A stretch of 64,000 bases of DNA from an uncultured bacterium (GCA_964468655.1 CAYXUG010000002.1:920-64919), one strand, 5' to 3'. Shown: positions 43,205 through 63,429, numbered from the stretch's first letter. The notes: generated by a model not told the origin, from the letters alone. Translations and numbers: made by a program.

Positions 43205-44791
43205 ATGAAAAATAAATTATTGTTATGGTCACTTTTATTAAGCGCCGGTTTTATCTGGAATGTTTGCATCGCACAGGAGTCAACATTCCTTGCTCAAAAA
43301 TTAATGTTTGAAAATGACCTGAAGAATCGAATTGAAAAAGCGCTGCAAAAGGTTATTGATGACCATCGGTACGTTTTGGATGTATCAGTCACACTGAAAT
43401 TTTCACCTACCGTGAAAGAAGAAATTACCTACAAACCCTCCAAAAAACGCGAAACTCAGTTTGGAGCCTCTGAAATGAAGACAGATGACCAAACAACAGA
43501 GATGCCCGGAAAAAGAACACGGTTTACAGGAATACCAATTCCGGGATTTGATTTTCACATTGAGGAAGGTGAGGTGCCATCGGAAGTTTCTGAAACAGTA
43601 AAAGAAATCGCACCGGAGATTTTTGTGGGTGAACGGGAAGTTGTGTCAGAGACATATACGGATATCACAGCATCTATGCCGCAGATTGAAAAGATGGATA
43701 TTTTTTGTTTACTTCCTGAGGATGCATCTACTGAGCTCATTGAAAATGTGCGTCAAATAATTGGGGTATCGGCACATATTGACAGGCGGAGAGGTGATGC
43801 AATCCGAATTCAAAAGGCATCTTTTAAAGAAAGGCGAGGTAAATCTGCTGAAGAAGTCATTTTAAAAAGTATTGCTGAAAAAATTGATCAGTTGGAAAAG
43901 AATCAAATAGTAGAAGAAATTGAAGTGCAGGAAGAAATTAATTGGCAGGAAGAAATCCAAAATTGGCAGGAAGAAGAAGCAAATAGAAGAGAAGAAGAAC
44001 ATATAGCATTTTTGGCAGCATTGAATCAATTTGAAAAAGAGCGTGATGAAGAAGAATTACAAAGAGTAAAAGATGAGATGACTGCAAGTTTTAAAGCAGA
44101 ATTAGATAAAAAAGACCAGAAACTGGAGCAATATAAAAAAACAATTGAATCCGGCGGTTTATCGGAGGAGGAACTTAAAGAAACAAGCGGAACGGTGAAT
44201 ATTTTAGAAGAAGAAAGAGCAAAGTTAGATTCAATGTTGGATGCAAAAAGAAAAGTACTAGACAGTGTATTTAGTGATATGAACCAACAATCCCGGCAAT
44301 CCAGTAGTAATTTACCCATATATTTAATGAGTGCAGTTTCATTATTGGCAGTCATTGCACTTGCAGGTGTTATTCTTTTTAATGGAAGAAAGCCTAAATA
44401 CGTTATGCCCCCTCCTTGGGCAATGCCTCGTCCCCGGCCAAAAAAAAAGAAAAAAAAAGTAAAAATTGATGATAACAACAATGGAGAGACAAAGACCGCA
44501 TCTCCCACAACACAGACGCAACCCGCACCAACACAAACTCCTCCACCAACTCAACCCCTACCTCCCGGCGAAGATCCAAGCGTACTGCAGTCTGAAATCA
44601 AATCAGTCCGTAAATCCATCATGTCTATGAGTACAGGCCAGCCCGATACAGCCACATCTATTGTGAAGGAATGGCTGCAGGAGGAAGCACCCCCACCTCC
44701 GGAAGAACCACAGCAAGCAGCAATCACCCCATCTGTTGAAGAAGAGGAAGAAGGCGGAAAGAAGAAGAAAAAAAAGAAAAAGAAAAAGTAG
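43205..44791 (+). CDS. FliF-like ring protein: signal/TM1, RBM3-type (YscJ_FliF_C-like) domain, long E/K coiled coil, TM2, Pro-rich cytoplasmic tail with FliG-docking-type helix, poly-Lys ends
   Basis: 528 aa with AAGGAG upstream. By eye, LMFENDLKNRIEKALQKVI..VLDVSVTLKFSP..EEITYKP aligns with Salmonella FliF LKFANDVESRIQRRIEAIL..VHAQVTAQLDFAN..TEEHYSP. Likewise ..EVVSETYTDI....IEKMDIFCLL....RRRGDAIRIQKASF aligns with ..ETSNYEVDRTI...IERLSVAVVV...DKRGDTLNVVNSPF. TM2 is IYLMSAVSLLAVIALAGVILF. The tail ..QPDTATSIVKEWLQEE resembles the FliF C-terminus ..NDPRVVALVIRQWMSNDHE. Confidence 0.65.
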   Translation: MKNKLLLWSLLLSAGFIWNVCIAQESTFLAQKLMFENDLKNRIEKALQKVIDDHRYVLDVSVTLKFSPTVKEEITYKPSKKRETQFGASEMKTDDQTTEMPGKRTRFTGIPIPGFDFHIEEGEVPSEVSETVKEIAPEIFVGEREVVSETYTDITASMPQIEKMDIFCLLPEDASTELIENVRQIIGVSAHIDRRRGDAIRIQKASFKERRGKSAEEVILKSIAEKIDQLEKNQIVEEIEVQEEINWQEEIQNWQEEEANRREEEHIAFLAALNQFEKERDEEELQRVKDEMTASFKAELDKKDQKLEQYKKTIESGGLSEEELKETSGTVNILEEERAKLDSMLDAKRKVLDSVFSDMNQQSRQSSSNLPIYLMSAVSLLAVIALAGVILFNGRKPKYVMPPPWAMPRPRPKKKKKKVKIDDNNNGETKTASPTTQTQPAPTQTPPPTQPLPPGEDPSVLQSEIKSVRKSIMSMSTGQPDTATSIVKEWLQEEAPPPPEEPQQAAITPSVEEEEEGGKKKKKKKKKK

Positions 44792-53793: not shown

Positions 53794-55362
53794 TTAATGT
53801 TTAAAGCACCTTTGCCCGGTAAATGTCATGGTGGTTCCGTGCTCATCACAGGCGGCGATAACTTCTTCATCACGGATTGATCCGCCCGGCTGGATAACTG
53901 CTGAAATGCCTGTTCCGGCAAGTTTATCGATACAGTCCCGAAACGGGAAAAATGCATCTGAACATAAAACAGTACCCTTCAAATTGTCTCCTGATTTGTT
54001 AATGGCAATATCTACCGCATCCACGCGGCTTACCTGTCCGGCACCAACCCCGACAGTTGTTTTGTTCTTAATAATCAAAATTCCGTTTGATTTCACATAC
54101 TTCAACACTTTCCAGCCAAAAAGCATATCCGTAATTTGATCATCAGTTGGGCGGACTTTTGTAACTACCTTTAACTGCCCATGAGTGACTGCACTTAAAT
54201 CAGAGTCTTGAACGAGAATTCCCCCATCCACGTATCGATATTCCAATTTTGGTTCGCGCTTTTCAACTTTGCCAATTTCAAGTACACGAAGATTTTTCTT
54301 TTTTGAGAAAATTGAAAGCGCATCTTTATTAAATGATGGCGCAAGAACGATTTCAGCAAACACTTTTGAAATAGCTTCGGCAATTTCAGCAGTACATTTT
54401 CTGTTTAATGCAATAATACCGCCGAACGCAGATAGACTGTCTGCATTAAAAGCTCGCATATACACATCAAGAAGATCATTTCCTACCGCCACTCCGCAGG
54501 GATTGGCATGTTTCACAACCACGCAAGCAGTTTCATCAAATTCCTTAAGGCAAGCCAGCGCGCCATCAGCATCCATGATATTGTTATAGGACAATTTTTT
54601 ACCCTGATGGATTTTTGCGTTTAAAATATTATTACTTTGATCGTTTGGAATCTGATATGCAGAAGCAGATTGATGGGGATTTTCACCATACCGTAAATCG
54701 GAATGTTTTTCAAAAGTGATGCTGAAATCTTCAGACAGTTTTTCATTTTTGAGATAATTATGAATAATGGTATCATATTTTGCTGTATGACCAAATGCTT
54801 TAGCCGATAATTTTTTTCGTATTTCAAACGAGACAGTATTTGATTCTTTTAACTCATCCATGACAGTGCCATAATCTGCAGGATCAATAACCACTCCAAC
54901 CCATCCCACGTTTTTAGCAGCGCTCCGAATCATGGTTGGTCCGCCGATGTCTACATTTTCCAAAGCCATTGCAAGATCGCAATCCTCCCGAGAAATAGTA
55001 TCCGAAAATGGATAGAGATTACAAACAACTAGATCAATCCATTTAATATTGTTTGCTTCAGCGTCATCTGAGTGCTTGTCCCTCAGACCAAGAATTCCAC
55101 CTTCTACCAATGGGTTAATAGTCTTCACACGACCGTCCATAATTTCAGGGAATTGGGTGTAGTCACTTACGTCTAGTACAGGAATGTTTGAATCACGGAG
55201 TGCCCTTGCTGTACCCCCGGTTGAAAGGATTTCTACATTCATTTCTGTAAGAGCTTTAGCAAATTCCACCACGCCGGTTTTATCGAATACGGAAATAAGC
55301 GCCCGGGTAATTTTGATTGGATTTTGATTAACCATAAAGTGTTTAAGTTTTAATGTGTTCAT
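53794..55362 (-). CDS. purH: bifunctional AICAR transformylase / IMP cyclohydrolase
   Basis: 522 aa with RALISVFDKTG and the C-terminus ...FTGQRCFKH. The start may instead be the second Met (55335). The first 9 codons (MNTLKLKHF) are built from the junction repeat motif. Confidence 0.95.
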   Translation of the reverse strand: MNTLKLKHFMVNQNPIKITRALISVFDKTGVVEFAKALTEMNVEILSTGGTARALRDSNIPVLDVSDYTQFPEIMDGRVKTINPLVEGGILGLRDKHSDDAEANNIKWIDLVVCNLYPFSDTISREDCDLAMALENVDIGGPTMIRSAAKNVGWVGVVIDPADYGTVMDELKESNTVSFEIRKKLSAKAFGHTAKYDTIIHNYLKNEKLSEDFSITFEKHSDLRYGENPHQSASAYQIPNDQSNNILNAKIHQGKKLSYNNIMDADGALACLKEFDETACVVVKHANPCGVAVGNDLLDVYMRAFNADSLSAFGGIIALNRKCTAEIAEAISKVFAEIVLAPSFNKDALSIFSKKKNLRVLEIGKVEKREPKLEYRYVDGGILVQDSDLSAVTHGQLKVVTKVRPTDDQITDMLFGWKVLKYVKSNGILIIKNKTTVGVGAGQVSRVDAVDIAINKSGDNLKGTVLCSDAFFPFRDCIDKLAGTGISAVIQPGGSIRDEEVIAACDEHGTTMTFTGQRCFKH

Positions 55363-55406
55363 GTGTTAAAGAAGGATGTGCTACGAACACTTTAGCACCC
55401 AAACAC
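55339..55406. repeat. GTGTT[ACT]/[AGT]AACAC motif cluster at the purN|purH junction (5 copies, includes a 10-bp hairpin)
   Basis: The copies are GTGTTT 55339-44, GTGTTC 55355-60, GTGTTA 55363-68, GAACAC 55385-90 and AAACAC 55401-06. The arms taatgtgttc (55351-60) and gaacacttta (55385-94) pair at 9 of 10 positions around a 24-nt loop, joining the purN stop to the purH start codon region. Confidence 0.75.
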
Positions 55407-56000: not shown

Positions 56001-56079
56001 GTGTTTATGTGCTCGGGTTTTCAAGTGTTAAAGTTAAAAAATCATAAATGACCGTGAACACTTTAACACCTTAACACTT
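56001..56079. repeat. motif cluster at the purD|purN junction (5 copies; 3-unit 8-nt periodic array; 10-bp hairpin)
   Basis: The copies are GTGTTT 56001-06, GTGTTA 56025-30, and GAACACTT TAACACCT TAACACTT at 56056/56064/56072. The arms gtgttaaagt (56025-34) and actttaacac (56060-69) form a perfect 10-bp stem with a 25-nt loop. Confidence 0.75.
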
Positions 56080-57381
56080 TAATTCTTTAATATGGTCAAT
56101 TCGTTCTTGAATTAAACCATCCGTTCCAATATCTTTTCGATGAAAAAGCGGTCCTTTAATCGCAGACACTTCTCTTTCAGCAATTCGCTCCGCTTCAGAA
56201 ATAGAATCCGCCATCCCAATAACAGCAACAGTTCGGCTGCCGGCTTCAACAAGTTGACCGTTTTTGATATCAACGGACGCATAAAATAATCCATCATGAT
56301 TTTTGATATTTGAAACATCAATGAGTTCGCCTTTGACCGGTTCGTCCGGATACCCTTCCGGAACCGCGTATTTGCAGACTGTTGCCAGATGCCCAAATGA
56401 TATATACTTCTCATGCAAATTTCCATCCACGATGCCCATACAAACTTCCACAAAATCTGACTCCAGAAGGGGAAGCACATTCATGGCTTCCGGATCACCA
56501 AACCGGGCATTGTATTCAATCAGCTTCACACCGTCAGCCGTGGCGATGAACCCTCCGTAGAGGATACCCTTGTATCCTTCGCCGAACTCCTCCTTAAGTG
56601 CGCCCGCCGTCGCTTCATTTATTTGCCGGGCGTGGGTAATGTCATTATCTGTAAGGAACGGAAGGTTGTGATCGGCGTCTGAGTAGCTGCCCATCCCGCC
56701 GGTGTTGGGTCCCGTATCTCCCTCATAGGCACGTTTATGATCCTGTACAGCCGGCATGTGTTTGAGATGATCGCCATCGCAGAAACTCATGAGGGAAAAC
56801 TCCTGTCCTATAAGTTTTTCTTCAATGATGAAATTACCACCGTTATTTACCAAATCTTGACAGTAAGCTAAAGCATCCTCATGAGAATTTAAATGATCGC
56901 CGGCTACTTTTACACCTTTTCCGCCAGCCAGTCCATCATATTTTACCACATAGTTATCGCCTAATTCGTTTAGAAAATCAGCAACCCCTTCGAAGGAGGA
57001 AAACGTTTTGTATTTTGGACTACCGGGAATATTGTATTCAGTAAGTAAATCCCGGGTGAAGGATTTAGACGTTTCAATTTGAGCGAGTTCTTTTTTTGGT
57101 CCCACGACTCCGACACCGGAATTCCATAGAGCATCAGCAACTCCATTAGCCAGAGGATTTTCCGGCCCGATAATAGCAAGATCAGCACCAACTTCTGTGG
57201 CATAGCTAGTGACAATGTTGGGATTATTGATATTATCTACAACGATCTGTTTAGTGAGCTCAGCTATGCCAGGATTCATGTTGGAGGCCAGGCAATAGAT
57301 TTCTTTTTCCTGAGGTGAACGGACCAGAGCGCGGACAATGGCATGTTCCCTTGCGCCTGAACCTAAAACAAGGATGTTCAA
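56071..57381 (-). CDS. purD: phosphoribosylamine--glycine ligase
   Basis: 436 aa. It begins MNILVLGSGAREHAI, has an ATP-grasp core, and its start overlaps the purF stop by 4 nt. Confidence 0.95.
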   Translation of the reverse strand: MNILVLGSGAREHAIVRALVRSPQEKEIYCLASNMNPGIAELTKQIVVDNINNPNIVTSYATEVGADLAIIGPENPLANGVADALWNSGVGVVGPKKELAQIETSKSFTRDLLTEYNIPGSPKYKTFSSFEGVADFLNELGDNYVVKYDGLAGGKGVKVAGDHLNSHEDALAYCQDLVNNGGNFIIEEKLIGQEFSLMSFCDGDHLKHMPAVQDHKRAYEGDTGPNTGGMGSYSDADHNLPFLTDNDITHARQINEATAGALKEEFGEGYKGILYGGFIATADGVKLIEYNARFGDPEAMNVLPLLESDFVEVCMGIVDGNLHEKYISFGHLATVCKYAVPEGYPDEPVKGELIDVSNIKNHDGLFYASVDIKNGQLVEAGSRTVAVIGMADSISEAERIAEREVSAIKGPLFHRKDIGTDGLIQERIDHIKELKC

Positions 57382-58859: not shown

Positions 58860-58931
58860 TTACGCAAGTGTTCATGTGCGTAAGTGATAAGGTGTTCACG
58901 AACACTCGAACACTTTAACACTTTAACACTA
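58860..58931. repeat. motif cluster at the purB|purF junction: hairpin displaying GTGTTC, a GTGTTC-AC-GAACAC dyad, and a 4-unit 8-nt periodic array
   Basis: The stem TTACGCA (58860-66) / TGCGTAA (58877-83) encloses the loop AGTGTTCATG. The dyad lies at 58892-58905. The array GAACACTC GAACACTT TAACACTT TAACACTA starts at 58900, 58908, 58916 and 58924. Confidence 0.8.
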
Positions 58932-58944
58932 TGTTTTTTTCTTC

Positions 58945-60300
58945 TCATAATAATTCCACCAATTTTCCCGAAAGCCCAGTATAGTTTGCCGGTGCCAAGT
59001 TCAACAATGCTTTTTTATCTTCTTCAGAAATCTTGAGTGATGAAATTAATTTTGATATAACTTCAGGTTTAATCGATTGACCACGTGTTAAAGATTTAAG
59101 CAGTTCAAAGGAATCGGTTTCACCATTCTTTCTGAGAATGGTTTGTATGGCTTCTGCAAGTATTTCCCAATGATCGTTTAGTTCCTTGCGCAAGTTGTAT
59201 TGATTTAGCGTAATTCTTTTTAATCCTTTTAAAACATTTGTTATGGCTAAATAGGAATGACCAAGTGCCGTCCCCTGGTTTCTCAATACAGTACTGTCAG
59301 ACAAGTCTCTCTGCACCCTGGATATGGGAAGTTTTACGGCAAGATGGTTGAGAAGTGTGCTAGCTAGTCCCAGGTTTCCTTCGGCATTTTCAAATTGAAT
59401 TGGATTAATTTTATGGGGCATGGTGGATGAGCCAACTTCTCCAGCCACTTTTTTCTGTTCCAGAATACCACGACTAATATACGCCCACATATCTCGACAG
59501 AAATCCGTAAGAATGGAATTAACCCGCACCACTTGATGGAAACTTTCTACCAGGGAATCGTGGGGCTCAATTTGCGTTGTAATTAAGTTGGGGTCGAGTC
59601 CAAGTTTGTTGATAAATCGTTCAGCGAATTTCAACCAACTCACTTTTGGGTATGCAACCATGTGAGAGGACCATGTTCCCGTTGCGCCCCCGAACTTCCC
59701 TAATAATTTATGAGATTTGATTTGATCAATTTGACGGTTGAGGCGATTGGAAAATACAGCCAATTCTTTTCCGAATGTAGTGGGCGTTGCGGGCTGGCCA
59801 TGTGTCAGGGCCAACATGGAAGCACCTTTATATTTCCGCGCCAGTTTTTTCAGCTCTTTATTCACCGATTGTAGCGATGGCAGATAAACCTGTTTCAATC
59901 CGTCTTGCCACATGAGTGAATAAGATAAATTATTCACATCTTCAGAGGTCAGGGCAAAATGTATCCACGGATGAAGCGCTTTTTTTACCTTACCTTGGAT
60001 GTAATACTCAGCGGCTTTCACATCATGGTTGGTGGTGACTTCAATTTTTTTGACCTTTTCAGCACCAGCTGAATTGAAGTTTTGGTAGATCTTCCGCAGG
60101 CGGGTTTGTTCATCTTTGGAAAAGGGCGGAAGCTCTTTGATTACTTTTTCATTCCCTAAAGCTATGAGATATTCAACTTCAACCTTTATACGATATTTCA
60201 TTAACGCTGATTCGCTGAAGTATGGCGACAGGTCGTTTATACTTTTGGCATAGCGACCGTCTAATGGGGAAATGTTTTTTAAAGTGTTTGAAGTGTTCAT
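58945..60300 (-). CDS. purB: adenylosuccinate lyase
   Basis: 451 aa with ISPLDGRY near the N-terminus and the fumarate-lyase signature GSSTMPHKINP. Its start overlaps the upstream 4HB stop (ATGA). Confidence 0.95.
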   Translation of the reverse strand: MNTSNTLKNISPLDGRYAKSINDLSPYFSESALMKYRIKVEVEYLIALGNEKVIKELPPFSKDEQTRLRKIYQNFNSAGAEKVKKIEVTTNHDVKAAEYYIQGKVKKALHPWIHFALTSEDVNNLSYSLMWQDGLKQVYLPSLQSVNKELKKLARKYKGASMLALTHGQPATPTTFGKELAVFSNRLNRQIDQIKSHKLLGKFGGATGTWSSHMVAYPKVSWLKFAERFINKLGLDPNLITTQIEPHDSLVESFHQVVRVNSILTDFCRDMWAYISRGILEQKKVAGEVGSSTMPHKINPIQFENAEGNLGLASTLLNHLAVKLPISRVQRDLSDSTVLRNQGTALGHSYLAITNVLKGLKRITLNQYNLRKELNDHWEILAEAIQTILRKNGETDSFELLKSLTRGQSIKPEVISKLISSLKISEEDKKALLNLAPANYTGLSGKLVELL

Positions 60301-60322
60301 ATGTTTAAGTGTTCAGGTGTTT
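60284..60322. repeat. motif cluster at the 4HB|purB junction (4 copies), includes the left 13-bp inverted-repeat arm
   Basis: The copies are GTGTTT 60284-89, GTGTTC 60293-98 (abutting the purB start codon), GTGTTC 60309-14 and GTGTTT 60317-22. The arm gtgttcaggtgtt lies at 60309-60321. Confidence 0.75.
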
Positions 60323-60788
60323 TTGTATTTGAGTCTTCTCGACTTATATATTCATCAGGAATATCCCAACAATTTTGATTGAATCCATATTCTGCAATAG
60401 GCTCACTAACCTTATTGTTTGAAATGGAATTATTCACATGTTTTAATAAACCCATTGTAATAGCACGTACTTCTTCAGTGTCGTTTTGAACCGCCGTTAC
60501 TTTGTCGTTCTCTAAATAATTTTGATCAAGGATAATATACAATAAACTTTTTACTTCCATTGCTGAACTTTGTGAAATATCTAAAAAGCGTATAAATTCT
60601 TTGCGATGGAACCGAGAAAATCCTTCTGCAATATTCGTCATAGCTGAAACAGCAGCCCGTCGTAGTTGATTTTTTAAACCGAAGTCTTTTGATAGTGGTC
60701 CTGATTTTGTAATGAAATAAATATTGTTCACCAATACACGAGCTTTTTGCCAACAAATTAGATCTTCAAATTGTGTGATTTTACTCAT
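60297..60788 (-). CDS. four-helix-bundle protein (23S rRNA intervening-sequence protein family), inserted in the pur operon
   Basis: 163 aa. FEDLICWQKARVLVNNIY...LKNQLRRAAVSAMTNIAEGFSRFHRKEFIRFLDISQSSAMEVKSLLYI matches the family pattern (W.kA..L...iy......d.......Qi.RaavSi..NIAEG..r.s.kef..fl.iA.gS..E). An extra ~45-aa C-terminal tail is present. Confidence 0.8.
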   Translation of the reverse strand: MSKITQFEDLICWQKARVLVNNIYFITKSGPLSKDFGLKNQLRRAAVSAMTNIAEGFSRFHRKEFIRFLDISQSSAMEVKSLLYIILDQNYLENDKVTAVQNDTEEVRAITMGLLKHVNNSISNNKVSEPIAEYGFNQNCWDIPDEYISREDSNTKTPEHLNI

Positions 60789-60808
60789 ATCTTAAATCCA
60801 TTACCACT

Positions 60809-60824
60809 TGAACACCAGAACACG
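60809..60824. repeat. motif cluster at the purE|4HB junction (2 copies, 8-nt spacing), the right 13-bp inverted-repeat arm
   Basis: GAACACCA GAACACGT starts at 60809 and 60817. The arm aacaccagaacac (60810-60822) pairs with 60309-60321 at 12 of 13 positions. Confidence 0.75.
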
Positions 60825-60825
60825 T

Positions 60826-61212
60826 TTAAACTTTAAGAATTCGTTTTACTGCCAACGCACAATTCCCAGGATCGATCACAGTAAGAACAGGAGTATTGCT
60901 TGGCATTTGGAGTGTTGAATGAATATTAACCATCATGTCTGTTTTATCAGCAAAAGGAGGACAGGCAAGTGTTGGAAATTTTGAATTTGCTGCAACAAAT
61001 CCGGAAAGAGCGTTGGACCGCCCGGCGATGGTGATGTACACAATATATTTTTCATCTTTATTAGTGTTCAAGATTTCCAATACTTTCAGTGGTTGTTTGT
61101 GTGCGGATGCTGCATGCTGTTCCCAAGCGATGCCGTATTCATTCAACTTATCAGTGATTTTTTTTGCGTGGGATTCATCAGAAGTTGAACCCATTATTAT
61201 GATTACTCTCAT
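60826..61212 (-). CDS. purE: AIR carboxylase, PurE family (class II-like signatures), short 128-aa form
   Basis: The product starts MRVIIIMGSTSDESHA. It has SAHKQP where class I has SAHRTP, and IAGRSNALSG where class I has AGGAAHLPG. The AGRSNGL / SAHK pattern is what I recall for class II (PAICS / T. denticola-type) PurE. No purK is present in the operon. Confidence 0.75.
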   Translation of the reverse strand: MRVIIIMGSTSDESHAKKITDKLNEYGIAWEQHAASAHKQPLKVLEILNTNKDEKYIVYITIAGRSNALSGFVAANSKFPTLACPPFADKTDMMVNIHSTLQMPSNTPVLTVIDPGNCALAVKRILKV

Positions 61213-62198
61213 ATGTATTCCTTTAAATTATCTAATAATCTATCGTGAATTGATTTTTTTAGTTCAGGGAACGAAAAGTCATTTCCTGTAATTGTTTCAA
61301 ACAAATAAATGTATCTGTTTGACAGTTCGACGACCAACTCTTCCGGGGCTTCCGGAAGTGTTTGGTCATTGTATGGGTCGCAATTATCAACAAACCAAAG
61401 GCGCAGAAATTCCTTGTCCACATTCTCAGGCTCCTTCCCCAGAGCCATTCTTCCTTCATAAGAATTTCCAATCCAAAATCTGCTACTGTCTGGAGTGTGG
61501 ATTTCATCGATTAGGACAATATTTCCATCGCTATCCCGTCCCATTTCATATTTTGTATCAACAAGGATTAAACCGTGCTCTGCTGCTTTCTTCTGCCCAA
61601 ATGAAAATAACTCTAATGCTTTCCTACTGCAATAATCCCAATCTTCCTGACTCATCCAGCCTTCACTCACAATGTCATCGGGGGTGATGGGACGATCGTG
61701 ATGCTCTTCTTTCGTGGTGGGTGTTAGCATATTGGCATCAAGCTTTTGATTCTTTATCAATCCTTCCGGCAAATTATTCCCGCAATATTCACGATCACCA
61801 TTGTTATAGACAGTCCAAAGTGATGTGCTGGTACTTCCTGTTATATAACCCCGTACAACAAATTCAATGGGGAATACATCGCACTTTTTAGCTATGGTTA
61901 CATTGGGGTCAGGCACTGTAATGACATGATTAGGAATGATGTGGTCTGTCCGGTCAAACCACCAGGCACTGGTCAAATTCAATACCTGTCCTTTAAAAGG
62001 AATTGAAGCTAAAATCCTATCGAAGGCACTTTGCCTATCCGTTGTAATAAAAATAAATTTATCATCTAATTCATAGGAGTCACGTACTTTACCATGTCGT
62101 TTTTCTCCGAAATTAAAATTTGTTTCACTTAATGTATTTTGAGCGGATTTTTGAATTTTGGTTTTATAATTACTATTTTTCATAGTGCAAACAATCAT
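61209..62198 (-). CDS. purC: SAICAR synthetase (long form)
   Basis: 329 aa. The motif GKVRDSYELDDKFIFITTDRQSAFDR, with LIDEIHTPDSSRFW, is typical of long PurC. The start may instead be MKNSNYK at 62183. Its stop overlaps the purE start (ATGA). Confidence 0.9.
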   Translation of the reverse strand: MIVCTMKNSNYKTKIQKSAQNTLSETNFNFGEKRHGKVRDSYELDDKFIFITTDRQSAFDRILASIPFKGQVLNLTSAWWFDRTDHIIPNHVITVPDPNVTIAKKCDVFPIEFVVRGYITGSTSTSLWTVYNNGDREYCGNNLPEGLIKNQKLDANMLTPTTKEEHHDRPITPDDIVSEGWMSQEDWDYCSRKALELFSFGQKKAAEHGLILVDTKYEMGRDSDGNIVLIDEIHTPDSSRFWIGNSYEGRMALGKEPENVDKEFLRLWFVDNCDPYNDQTLPEAPEELVVELSNRYIYLFETITGNDFSFPELKKSIHDRLLDNLKEYI

Positions 62199-63429
62199 GT
62201 GAATATGGATTGTATAAAATATGTGTATTTAAAACTTCTTCAATAACAGAAACTACGTCGCCTTTTTCTACAGTAATATCCCATAATATACCACTCTCGA
62301 TAGATTTTATATTTTTTGCATGAAACCAGTGCTTGAGAATATCTTTTTTCCGTTTACCTGATGCATTGTCTTTATCACGTACAAGAAAAGCCAAAGTATT
62401 ACTATTATGTTTGTAGTTTACAACCATTTCCTTGTTTGAATTAAATAACTCCCCTGACCTTTCAATTTTTTCCAGAGAACTATTTGAGTAACTAGAGTTA
62501 GATATAATTTCCCAATGAGTATAGCGTTTCACTCTAACTGAGAGATCCATCTGACGCAGGGCATTCTCTACCGAAACTGCTTCATTGTCGGTGATAATGA
62601 GCTCTATTAATAGTTCGTTTGAATTTTCATCAGAATTGAATTTTTCAATTTGAACCGTGTCTTGATAATCCAGCTTAGGTATTGAAATCTTTTTTAATTT
62701 CGAGATATACTCTCTCATTGATGAAAAAACTGGATCGCCTGAAGTTGATCTTTCAGGATGGGGCATCATGGCCATAACATTTCCACCCGAATTACTGACT
62801 GCTGCTAAGTTTTCAATTGAGCCGTTCGGATTCACAGGAAAATCCAGATTTAATTCTCCTTTAGTTGTACAATATCGAAATGTATCGAGGTGATTATCTT
62901 TTAAAATTTTCATAATGGATGGAGAAGTTACAAACCTGCCTTCCGCATGAGCAACTGGGATTCGCATTATTTCGTTCTGTTTCAACTGTGACGTAAATGC
63001 AGACTTATCTGATTCGGTTGATGGTATGATATTGACCCACCCATTATAGAATCCGGTGCCGATTAATGCTCCTTTTTTCTTTTTTTCATTTGCTGCAAGA
63101 GCCATTCCTAGATTATTGTTTTTAAAACCCGGGACGAGTCCTGTTTCAATAAGAATTTGGGCCCCATTACAGATACCCAGAACCGGTTTCCCTTTTTCTG
63201 ATTCCTGTCGAAGGACTTTTATCACGGGATCAAGGGATGCGATGATTCCTGCGCGGGACCTGTCTTCGTAAGAAAATCCTCCAACTATAAAATAGCCATC
63301 ACAGTTAATAAGATTTTCCGATGGCATATTCCAGAGAAATTCAAACGACCCCATTCCAGCTCGTTTTACAGCCAGCACTGATTCACGCTCACAGTTAGAA
63401 CCGGGGAACTGTATAATTGCTATTTTCAT
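62173..63429 (-). CDS. purQ: FGAM synthase glutaminase subunit PurQ fused to a C-terminal ~180-aa region resembling two PurS-like modules
   Basis: 418 aa. The N-terminal ~235 aa is PurQ (MKIAIIQFPGSNCERE, LGICNGAQIL, MMPHPER). The C-terminal part has PurS-like patterns (LIIELIITDNEAVSVENALRQMDL.VRVKRYTHWEI and FLVRDKDNASGKRKKDILKHW....ILWDITVEKGD...VIEEVLNTHILYNPYSHDCL). Confidence 0.75.
   Translation of the reverse strand: MKIAIIQFPGSNCERESVLAVKRAGMGSFEFLWNMPSENLINCDGYFIVGGFSYEDRSRAGIIASLDPVIKVLRQESEKGKPVLGICNGAQILIETGLVPGFKNNNLGMALAANEKKKKGALIGTGFYNGWVNIIPSTESDKSAFTSQLKQNEIMRIPVAHAEGRFVTSPSIMKILKDNHLDTFRYCTTKGELNLDFPVNPNGSIENLAAVSNSGGNVMAMMPHPERSTSGDPVFSSMREYISKLKKISIPKLDYQDTVQIEKFNSDENSNELLIELIITDNEAVSVENALRQMDLSVRVKRYTHWEIISNSSYSNSSLEKIERSGELFNSNKEMVVNYKHNSNTLAFLVRDKDNASGKRKKDILKHWFHAKNIKSIESGILWDITVEKGDVVSVIEEVLNTHILYNPYSHDCLHYEK

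Follow-up and report, generated by a model that had tools for sequence, protein, structure and literature searches.

A four-helix-bundle gene in a Marinimicrobia purine operon is probably part of a hairpin cassette of the rRNA intervening-sequence type

To our knowledge, genes of the 'four helix bundle' family PF05635, which are among the commonest unexplained small genes of bacteria, have been recognised only in the intervening sequences (IVSs) of ribosomal RNA and through a kinship with Avd of the diversity-generating retroelements (DGRs). One such gene, here called 4HB, lies between purE and purB in a stretch of 64,000 nucleotides from an uncultured bacterium (GCA_964468655.1 CAYXUG010000002.1:920-64919; hereafter the window), whose purine locus is of marine Marinimicrobia (Neomarinimicrobiota/Fidelibacterota) lineage. 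The gene and the repeat arms on either side of it are probably one inherited unit, an IVS-type hairpin cassette residing in an mRNA operon, which is accompanied by three solo hairpins.

IVSs that carry an S23p/PF05635 open reading frame (ORF) have been described in the 23S rRNA of Coxiella burnetii, Leptospira, Xanthomonas and Brucella (PMC4990558). The Coxiella IVS is closed by a 28-bp terminal stem, within which RNase III cleaves, and holds the S23p ORF in its loop; directly upstream of this ORF lie two to four GACAGAT heptamers, in a copy number that varies between strains (PMC4990558). The cassette in the window shares with these elements a PF05635 protein encoded in the loop, terminal inverted repeats that act as the closing stem, and a dependence on host transcription. 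Variable tandem repeats directly upstream of the ORF, heptamers in Coxiella and GTGTTNNN octamers in the window, are also common to both, as is the existence of ORF-less versions. The parallel with rRNA IVSs, drawn in the original prediction for this locus, is thus borne out by the Coxiella element. However, the host of the cassette is a protein-coding operon rather than a 23S or 16S rRNA helix, which places it outside the definition of an IVS, and the arms in the window overlap neighbouring stops and starts and add residues to PurE, PurB, PurD and PurN. Furthermore, the ORF in the window is under purifying selection, whereas that of the Coxiella IVS is decaying and probably untranslated. Excision by RNase III, which is proven for rRNA IVS stems only, would separate cistrons in the pur operon, while in an IVS it fragments the rRNA.

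The 4HB gene is flanked by (GTGTTNNN)3 upstream and (AACACNNN)5 downstream (Table 1). The 13-nt inverted repeat that was first noticed at the gene, GTGTTCAGGTGTT at 60309-60321 and AACACCAGAACAC at 60811-60823, is complementary at 12 of 13 positions as had been claimed, although the second copy was originally placed one base away. Of 1000 flank shuffles 5 gave a match of 12/13 or better, as did 10 of 1000 random window pairs with equal spacing, and both 13-mers are parts of longer arrays with an 8-nt period. The 5' arm contains the purE stop codon (60826-60828) and has three GTGTTNNN-type units 5' of the ORF, as compared with 2-5 in orthologues and homologues. The 3' arm encodes the last ~10 codons of 4HB and its stop, followed by the purB ATG and an added N-terminal MNTSNT. 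Native PurB begins (V)SELKNISPLD, while in the window the protein begins MNTSNTLKNISPLD, with MNTSNT preceding the native LKNISPLDGR; similarly, PurE ends in ..FGV in relatives and in ..LKV at the insertion. The TGA of 4HB overlaps the ATG of purB as ATGA, confirming an earlier observation, and the purB start thereby lies inside the 3' arm. The cassette is co-oriented with the operon, and its arms are moulded so that the gene before it receives its stop or last residues from them, and the gene after it its start or first residues.

When the 553-nt 4HB cistron is folded, the arms pair as a closing stem of ~18 bp in both the minimum-free-energy and the centroid structure, which agrees with the proposal of a long-range hairpin, built from the junction motif, that has the gene in its loop. 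Terminal inverted repeats that close an ORF-bearing loop are a feature of IVS-type elements and equally of miniature inverted-repeat transposable elements (MITEs) and insertion sequences. An Rfam search of 53-64 kb gave no match at E <= 1, and no rRNA or tRNA was found in the window.

Table 1. Positions of the cassette, the solo hairpins and the neighbouring genes in the window
Feature	Coordinates	Strand	Basis
5' arm of the cassette, GTTTAAAC + GTGTT ctg GTGTT caa GTGGT	60803-60831	-	sequence, motif matches, fold
Short leader from the last 5' unit to the 4HB ATG, aatggatttaagat	60789-60802	-	flank comparison
4HB ORF, 163 aa, loop-resident, between purE and purB	60297-60788	-	PF05635 / TIGR02436
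3' arm of the cassette, AATAC aaa AACAC ctg AACAC tta AACAT atg AACAC ttca AACAC	60284-60329	-	sequence, motif matches
Solo hairpin, purB/purF	58867-58930	-	-21.5 kcal/mol, z -2.4
Solo hairpin, purD/purN	56001-56078	-	-18.6 kcal/mol
Solo hairpin, purN/purH	55339-55406	-	-23.7 kcal/mol, z -3.8, 0/200 shuffles as stable
purE, 128 aa, upstream neighbour of 4HB	60826-61212	-	Pfam AIRC
purB, 451 aa, downstream neighbour of 4HB	58945-60300	-	Pfam Lyase_1 + ASL_C

Comparison with 80 related Marinimicrobia pur loci reveals the state of the junction before insertion. In nearly all of them purE and purB overlap by 5-14 nt and form no hairpin, as exemplified by GGTGTCTGA in L015, L023 and L031, where PurB begins (V)SELKNISPLDGR; the purB/purF and purD/purN junctions are equally tight in relatives, and most Marinimicrobia pur operons lack the GTGTT/AACAC motif altogether. 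Expanded junctions are limited to one shallow clade, whose PurB is 73-79% identical to that of the window. Within it, an orthologous 4HB gene (71-78% identical) occupies the same site in L013, L014, L028 and the metagenome contig L096, with GTGTT units ahead of it and 2-6 AACAC units behind, and in L029 five AACAC units follow the remaining fragment of a decayed 4HB gene. Solo hairpins are present without a 4HB gene in the pur locus of L012, L025 and L026, and L011 and L016 have AACAC units at the purB start together with a different guest gene, of the GxxExxY family. The cassette entered an originally overlapping purE/purB junction in an ancestor of this clade, although the purB tree is too poorly resolved within the clade to count insertion events. 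The idea that the gene occupies what was once a purE/purB hairpin fails on these empty sites, which are short overlaps without a hairpin, the very outcome that the original prediction had named as speaking against it.

The native overlapping junction reads GGTGTCTGA-n-CAGTTAAACAC (L031:5960-6050, L033:300-380; window 60284-60331) and thereby holds GTGTC and AACAC 12 nt apart, like one unit of each arm; this may reflect target mimicry or coincidence. It was also observed that guest genes crowd the pur junctions in the shallow clade L011-L031 (for example L012:824-2791, L014:3911-6072, L028:10348-11626 and L029:9467-11571), while the operon of more distant relatives is compact. These guests comprise RidA plus cupin, DUF1059-like proteins, RelE/RHH and HicB antitoxin genes, a DUF433/PIN-like pair, a DNA methyltransferase with a restriction-enzyme-like gene, and small glycine-zipper membrane peptides. 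All of these adjoin complete solo hairpins, which are of several unit types, and are not enclosed in loops, so that gene capture is not a general property of stem-loops; among the guests seen, only 4HB and GxxExxY genes are loop-resident.

Arms of the same type accompany homologous 4HB genes at unrelated loci. In another Marinimicrobia lineage (L091/L092), a 4HB gene between Aldedh and cobW-like genes is preceded by two GTGTT units and followed by five to six of AACAC type, and in an HGD-D operon (L094) two 4HB copies have four and five GTGTT units. In Gracilimonas sediminicola (L095), a member of a different phylum, a 4HB protein that is 50% identical is encoded between macA-like and macB-like genes, with four GTGTT units before the gene and two AACAC units after it. 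Arrays matching the 5' arm of the window are thus found upstream of orthologues and of homologues elsewhere, a result that is incompatible with the arms being relics of the insertion site, as originally supposed. From the last 5' unit onward, a stretch resembling GT(G/A)TTAATGGA also appears to be common to homologues at other loci, judging from an alignment by eye only of the upstream flanks of the window locus (L001), L096, L097, L091 and L014.

The association extends across the family. In a survey of 80 metagenome loci of distant PF05635 genes (40-83% identical), 78 of which had adequate flanks, tandem short repeats occur upstream and their reverse complements downstream, with cores that are lineage-specific: GGATT/AATCC, CGAGTTA/TAACTCG, AGTCTAA/TTAGACT, TGAGT/ACTCA, GTCCA/TGGAC, GTGCT/AGCAC, GGAGT/ACTCC and GTTCC/GGAAC. 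An ungapped arm complementarity score of at least 12 was reached by 58 of the 78 loci, as compared with 6 of 78 cross-locus pairings, and the mean arm duplex energy was -43 kcal/mol, against -31 kcal/mol for controls (Wilcoxon p = 8e-9). With periodicity defined as a 24-nt stretch that self-matches to at least 75% at period 7, 8 or 9, 53% of the 5' flanks and 53% of the 3' flanks are periodic, most commonly at 7 nt, while the figure for ORF-internal controls is 0%; where both arms are periodic, the period is identical in 26 of 27 cases. The arm core tracks the 4HB protein tree. Neighbouring genes are co-oriented with 4HB in 55 of 66 cases upstream and 50 of 61 downstream, and the median gaps are 59 and 28 nt, so that the cassette just fills the space from one stop to the next start.

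In all cases it is the G-rich, C-poor arm that lies 5' relative to transcription. A need for stops in three frames was considered as the reason for a G/T-rich 5' arm and was rejected: stops in all frames occur in 23 of 78 5' arms and 13 of 78 3' arms, and the T content of the two is alike (0.28 versus 0.25). As a separate observation, the 5' units of many 4HB lineages (for example L174, L169, L179, L120, L124) resemble Shine-Dalgarno sequences (GGAGT, AGGAGTC, TGAGGAC) and the matching 3' units are anti-Shine-Dalgarno-like (ACTCC, GACTCCT, CCTCA), while the Bacteroidota and Marinimicrobia units (GTGTT, AGGTT, CACAGAG) have no such resemblance.

Three other junctions of the operon are occupied by ORF-less hairpins of the cassette's unit type. 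A pattern search for AACACNNNAACAC with at most one mismatch gave 21 matches, where 3.7 are expected and none of 100 shuffles reaches 21, and 19 of the 21 lie in pur junctions; a strict tandem-array detector, in place of this mismatch-tolerant search, picked up only the largest array. Each non-overlapping junction downstream of 4HB contains a complete hairpin of GTGTT/AACAC 8-nt units. Junction stem-loops built from a shared motif had been noted earlier, and three were found, but their arms measure 21-31 nt and not 24-25 nt; their energies range from -18.6 to -23.7 kcal/mol and their z scores from -1.8 to -3.8. The purB/purF hairpin consists of four GTGTT units, a 2-nt gap (gt, by repeat finder) and four AACAC-type units, and has orthologues in L013, L014 and L025; in most relatives this junction is 2 nt. 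In the purD/purN hairpin, which is shared with L012, L014, L025 and L026, the first GTGTT unit provides the K-C-stop codons of purD (AAGTGTTAA), giving a PurD C-terminus of ..LKC in place of the native ..SLR, and 9 nt separate the end of the 3' arm from the purN ATG; PurN begins MNT.. in L012 and L026. Units of the purN/purH hairpin likewise encode the PurN tail ..VFGC (GTGTTtggGTGCTAA), and its 3' arm contains an ATG at 55360-55362, upstream of the likely purH start at 55333-55335.

Across 867 kb of pur loci, the polarity of solo hairpins is GTGTT before AACAC in 22 cases and the reverse in 1. In the 64-kb window, 5 of 10 junctions in the pur operon are occupied, as compared with 0 of 29 elsewhere (p = 4e-4), a confinement that could arise from local spread or from operon-specific selection. 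With regard to annotation, the upstream ATG of purH would give a protein beginning MNTLKLKHF..., while the public gene call begins at the second ATG (513 aa); purD (window 56071-57381) is listed from a TTG as 436 aa and is called as 402 aa in the public record. Hairpin arms of this kind are likely to cause such start-site annotation errors.

The operon itself occupies 53-64 kb of the window on the minus strand, in the order purM, purQ-like, purC, purE, the 163-aa ORF, purB, purF, purD, purN, purH and bioY, and an identical JGI/TARA contig adds purA and purL upstream (purA-purL-purM-purQ-purC-purE-4HB-purB-purF-purD-purN-purH-bioY). The 4HB protein belongs to PF05635 (E 5.7e-34; 117 bits, cutoff 33.8) and scores 108 bits against NCBIfam TIGR02436 (cutoff 24), while its 21.6 bits against Pfam bAvd (PF22296) remain below the cutoff of 40. 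Its AlphaFold2 (AF2) model contains helices at residues 6-28, 36-58, 62-88 and 94-124, with pLDDT mostly >86 over residues 11-120; residues 125-163 form an acidic tail that is predicted to be disordered and is modelled with low confidence. The core is basic (pI 9.1), as opposed to the tail (pI 4.3). The original reading of the C-terminal ~45 residues as read-through did not hold, since subfamily members found in other contexts conserve residues ~115-150 (consensus N.V.EP...Y....LP.EFI) and AACAC units encode only the last ~8-12 residues (..TKTPEHLNI). Comparison with orthologues gives dN/dS values of 0.04-0.19, with dS saturated. Purifying selection maintains the 4HB protein, and because dS is saturated between orthologues, the arm units have persisted past a divergence that randomises neutral sequence.

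Sequence relatives, the AF2 model and Foldseek agree in placing the fold with S23 and Avd proteins, as had been anticipated. The solved relatives by sequence, PDB 2GSC and 2RLD, each crystallised as five chains per entry, and these also rank highest in Foldseek (2GSC: E 2e-6, rmsd 1.5), followed by Avd (4DWL) and a DGR ribonucleoprotein (8UB7). A homopentameric toroid has been reported for the S23p family (Lin 2006, as cited in PMC4990558), and Avd forms a basic pentamer that has its own dedicated RNA element for binding (10.1101/2023.10.23.563531). The 4HB protein shares with Avd (4DWL, 8UB7) the four-helix-bundle fold (Foldseek TM about 0.85 on target) and a basic core, and Avd binds a structured RNA element; yet the two are only ~12-13% identical, and the resemblance is structural only. 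A DGR was rejected as an explanation, as a crude regular-expression scan of the six-frame translations of the window gave no reverse-transcriptase-type motif and the neighbours of 4HB are pur genes; long direct repeats were not noticed in the vicinity of 4HB, though no dedicated template/variable-repeat search was run. A role in anti-phage defence was similarly dropped, PADLOC giving no match for 4HB or GxxExxY.

Cassettes are also found in cultured strains, where tblastn searches of plasmid records returned matches annotated 'four helix bundle protein'. A 4HB cassette of Riemerella anatipestifer has AGGTT/AACCT arms. In plasmid pNsp_a of Nostoc sp. ATCC 53789 and in pNPUN01/02 of N. punctiforme, a 4HB gene lies between genes of 441 and 288 nt, within arms of AGGAGTC/GACTCCT heptamers, while pNsp_c of ATCC 53789 carries a different 4HB gene, with GGGAAAA/TTTTCCC arms, one junction further on, between the 288-nt gene and a gene of 1542 nt. 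These homologous operons thus have reciprocal filled and empty sites (L176:2120-2180 and 2440-2990; L179:1400-1900 and 2120-2180; L181, L182). The Nostoc plasmids are direct evidence of independent insertion, and the presence of two arm types in ATCC 53789 is evidence that the arm type belongs to the cassette and not to the host. Other 4HB cassettes lie between tRNA-Ile(GAT) and tRNA-Ala(TGC), the classic pair of the 16S-23S spacer, or between tRNA-Lys(CTT) and tRNA-Arg(ACG) (L121:48-679, L155:829-1559, L157:574-1304); therefore, cassettes occupy the junctions of stable-RNA operons as well as those of mRNA operons.

The same design is used by the GxxExxY family (TIGR04256, PD-(D/E)XK-like), whose genes are loop-resident and co-oriented between housekeeping genes, with (CACAGAG N2-3)n upstream and (CTCTGTG)n downstream. 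Such loci (L011:5535-5990, L012:4145-4600, L058:2190-2925, and L183-L187 from the plasmid-collection records) include the junctions purE/purB (L011), purB/purF, ade/manC of Bernardetia and radA/FAD-protein of Bacteroides finegoldii; at fabD/fabG of Sphingomonas the arms are GCGAAGG/CTTCGCG. The GxxExxY guests share with the 4HB gene of the window a loop-resident, intercistronic and co-oriented arrangement, but their protein fold is unrelated and their arm motif different. No GxxExxY gene was found in the window or in a search of viral contigs.

Among other short elements, REP/BIME of enterobacteria and Correia/NEMIS of Neisseria are palindromic, multi-copy sequences that lie between co-transcribed genes, are transcribed with them and can affect mRNA processing and stability. 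The gene-less solo hairpins resemble these intercistronic elements. However, the arms in the window are tandem arrays of 7-9-nt units with lineage-specific cores, some loops hold a conserved protein gene, the orientation to transcription is strict, and no RAYT or transposase partner was found in the element or the window. Integron gene cassettes are promoter-less, co-directional ORFs that rely on an upstream promoter and carry attC sites, imperfect inverted repeats that fold as hairpins. The 4HB cassette is likewise a promoter-less, co-directional ORF with imperfect inverted repeats that can fold as hairpins, but its ORF is bracketed by two arms instead of having one attC at the 3' end, there is no integrase, attI or cassette array, and insertion is at the junctions of housekeeping operons.

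The reading favoured here is that a PF05635 ORF lacking a promoter occupies the loop of a long, imperfect stem; the arms of this stem, GTGTTNNN upstream and NNNAACAC downstream, are built of tandem 8-nt units. The cassette would be transcribed within the pur mRNA, in which the arms would pair as the ~18-bp closing stem and loop out the 4HB cistron. This stem could then be cut by a double-strand RNase (RNase III), as in rRNA IVSs, or else be melted by ribosomes finishing 4HB, which would free the overlapping purB start. The solo hairpins would be gene-less relatives, comparable to ORF-less IVSs. Together, the findings point to PF05635 cassettes as a scarcely described selfish element related to rRNA intervening sequences.

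Several points weigh against this reading. That the arms pair, are cleaved and couple the cistrons in the mRNA is deduced from sequence. Among the arm mismatches, G.U is no commoner than A.C (122 versus 137), and in each orthologous solo hairpin a single compensatory pair stands beside several broken ones, so that RNA pairing is only a candidate for the selected trait. The stems, imperfect at about 71-85% complementarity, may serve poorly as RNase III substrates. About a quarter of the sampled 4HB genes have no detectable arms (for example the 3' side in L094, and Nostoc PCC 7120, L178), no mobility enzyme (recombinase or transposase) was found in the element, in the window or near any copy, and no 4HB remnant is present in the solo hairpins, so that it is an assumption that they descend from gene-bearing copies. 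In filled/empty pairs (L176 versus L179; the window versus L031), TTAAAC- or TTCTAG-like strings occur on both sides, but they are palindromic and lie within the stem; because the stem bases are palindromic (TTTAAA in the window, TCTAGA in Nostoc), a target-site duplication is not distinguishable from the inverted repeat and cannot be clearly called. Finally, the patchy distribution within the clade could reflect one old insertion followed by losses, or repeated insertions.

The lack of a G.U excess and the weak covariation in orthologous hairpins would be expected if the arms acted mainly in DNA, as recombination or transposition ends or as single-stranded hairpins or cruciforms of the attC/REP kind, with the enzyme encoded elsewhere and pairing in the mRNA being incidental. 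This explanation, which is possible though we regard it as the less probable account, also accommodates the insertions that vary from junction to junction within one conserved Nostoc operon, the coexistence of solo and gene-bearing forms, as of MITEs with their parent elements, and the use of one kind of hairpin by the two unrelated families 4HB and GxxExxY. Conversely, the strict orientation to transcription and the exact fit to stops and starts argue for constraints at the level of the transcript or of translation, no recombinase or transposase was seen near any copy nor any unambiguous target-site duplication, and rRNA IVS stems of the same design are proven substrates of RNase III (PMC4990558). 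It is, on the other hand, hardly credible that the 13-nt inverted repeat is a by-product of the A/T-rich composition of the junctions. Short imperfect inverted repeats are indeed common (377 pairs in 11 kb), and the general density of the motif had been offered as a simple explanation of the match, but the specific match recurs in only 0.5-1% of controls, the motif arrays exceed their expectation several-fold without an equal among the shuffles, and the pattern is conserved in orthologues and across the family; chance is already refuted by the match controls, the motif counts and the family-wide complementarity.

A further alternative is that a short purE/purB hairpin came first and that the 4HB ORF was later captured in its loop or targeted to it, the arms being what is left of that hairpin. 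The solo hairpins that this motif forms at three other junctions, their occurrence in relatives that lack 4HB at purE/purB (L012, L025, L026), and the AACAC units that L011 and L016 keep at the purB start despite a GxxExxY guest could be read in this way. It is nevertheless very improbable: the ancestral junction was an overlap without a hairpin, so that the empty sites largely refute it; 4HB homologues at unrelated loci, and in another phylum, have matching arms; every 4HB clade has its own arm motif; the leader from arm to ATG also appears to be common to different loci; and other guest genes are never inside loops. The confinement of all five occupied window junctions to the pur operon (p = 4e-4), the hairpins that cover or abut start codons, the conserved core 5-mer with variable spacers that co-varies with the protein clade, purifying selection on the protein, and the basic pentameric Avd with its binding RNA element (10.1101/2023.10.23.563531) would all suit a domesticated regulator. 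In that case the 4HB protein would bind the GTGTT/AACAC units ((GUGUUNNN)n, (AACACNNN)n) of the pur transcript, in its own arms and in the solo hairpins, and adjust how purB, purF, purN and purH are processed or translated, with the hairpins as host regulatory elements. Yet this is unlikely, as the cassette type also occurs in operons of unrelated function and in tRNA/rRNA operons and so has no tie to purine metabolism, most Marinimicrobia pur operons lack the motif, L012, L025 and L026 have solo hairpins without a 4HB gene in the locus, and binding of the units by the protein is a candidate activity only. A purine-specific motif of the PurR-box or riboswitch kind was rejected in the same context, the motif being absent from most Marinimicrobia pur operons, present in non-pur operons and without an Rfam match. 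As for the protein within the favoured hairpin-cassette reading, a speculative extension, to which we attach little probability, is that it is the cognate, sequence-specific binder of its own arm units, with about one 7-9-nt unit per subunit of a pentamer, like TRAP or Avd, and that the resulting ribonucleoprotein or single-stranded DNA complex spreads hairpin cassettes and solo copies and controls processing and translation at unit-bearing junctions. The conserved 5-nt core, the free spacers and the co-variation with the protein clade would fit such recognition of the units by the 4HB protein.

Some features elsewhere in the window were also noted. The purQ-like gene (62173-63429, minus strand) encodes 418 aa, of which only residues 1-229 form the glutamine amidotransferase domain, and the C-terminal half has no assignment, being possibly a PurS-like fusion; both this long gene and the short purE (128 aa) are kept across Marinimicrobia loci. 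A gene at 43205-44791 on the plus strand, adjoining MotA/MotB-like and FliG-like genes, encodes a protein of 528 aa with a Pro-rich and Glu-rich C-terminal region and a terminal run of eleven lysines, and has no bearing on the 4HB finding.

Literature searches limited to a searchable library retrieved the rRNA IVS case and no description of this architecture in operons or across the family, an absence that is no proof of novelty. The present results indicate that the normal habitat of PF05635 genes is a hairpin cassette with arms of tandem 7-9-nt units, placed exactly between co-transcribed units, be they mRNA cistrons, tRNAs or rRNA helices, and that the unrelated GxxExxY family is a second user of this design. 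In PurB, PurD, PurN and PurH of the host operon, the arms give rise to alternative starts and to spurious extensions at the N- and C-termini. If the 4HB protein were indeed the cognate binder of its arms, then PF05635, GxxExxY, rRNA IVSs and operon hairpins would constitute one widespread and undescribed class of mobile cassette that rides on transcripts. What has been an annotation curiosity thus becomes a testable class of element, with carriers in culture that include Nostoc, Riemerella, Bacteroides and Sphingomonas.

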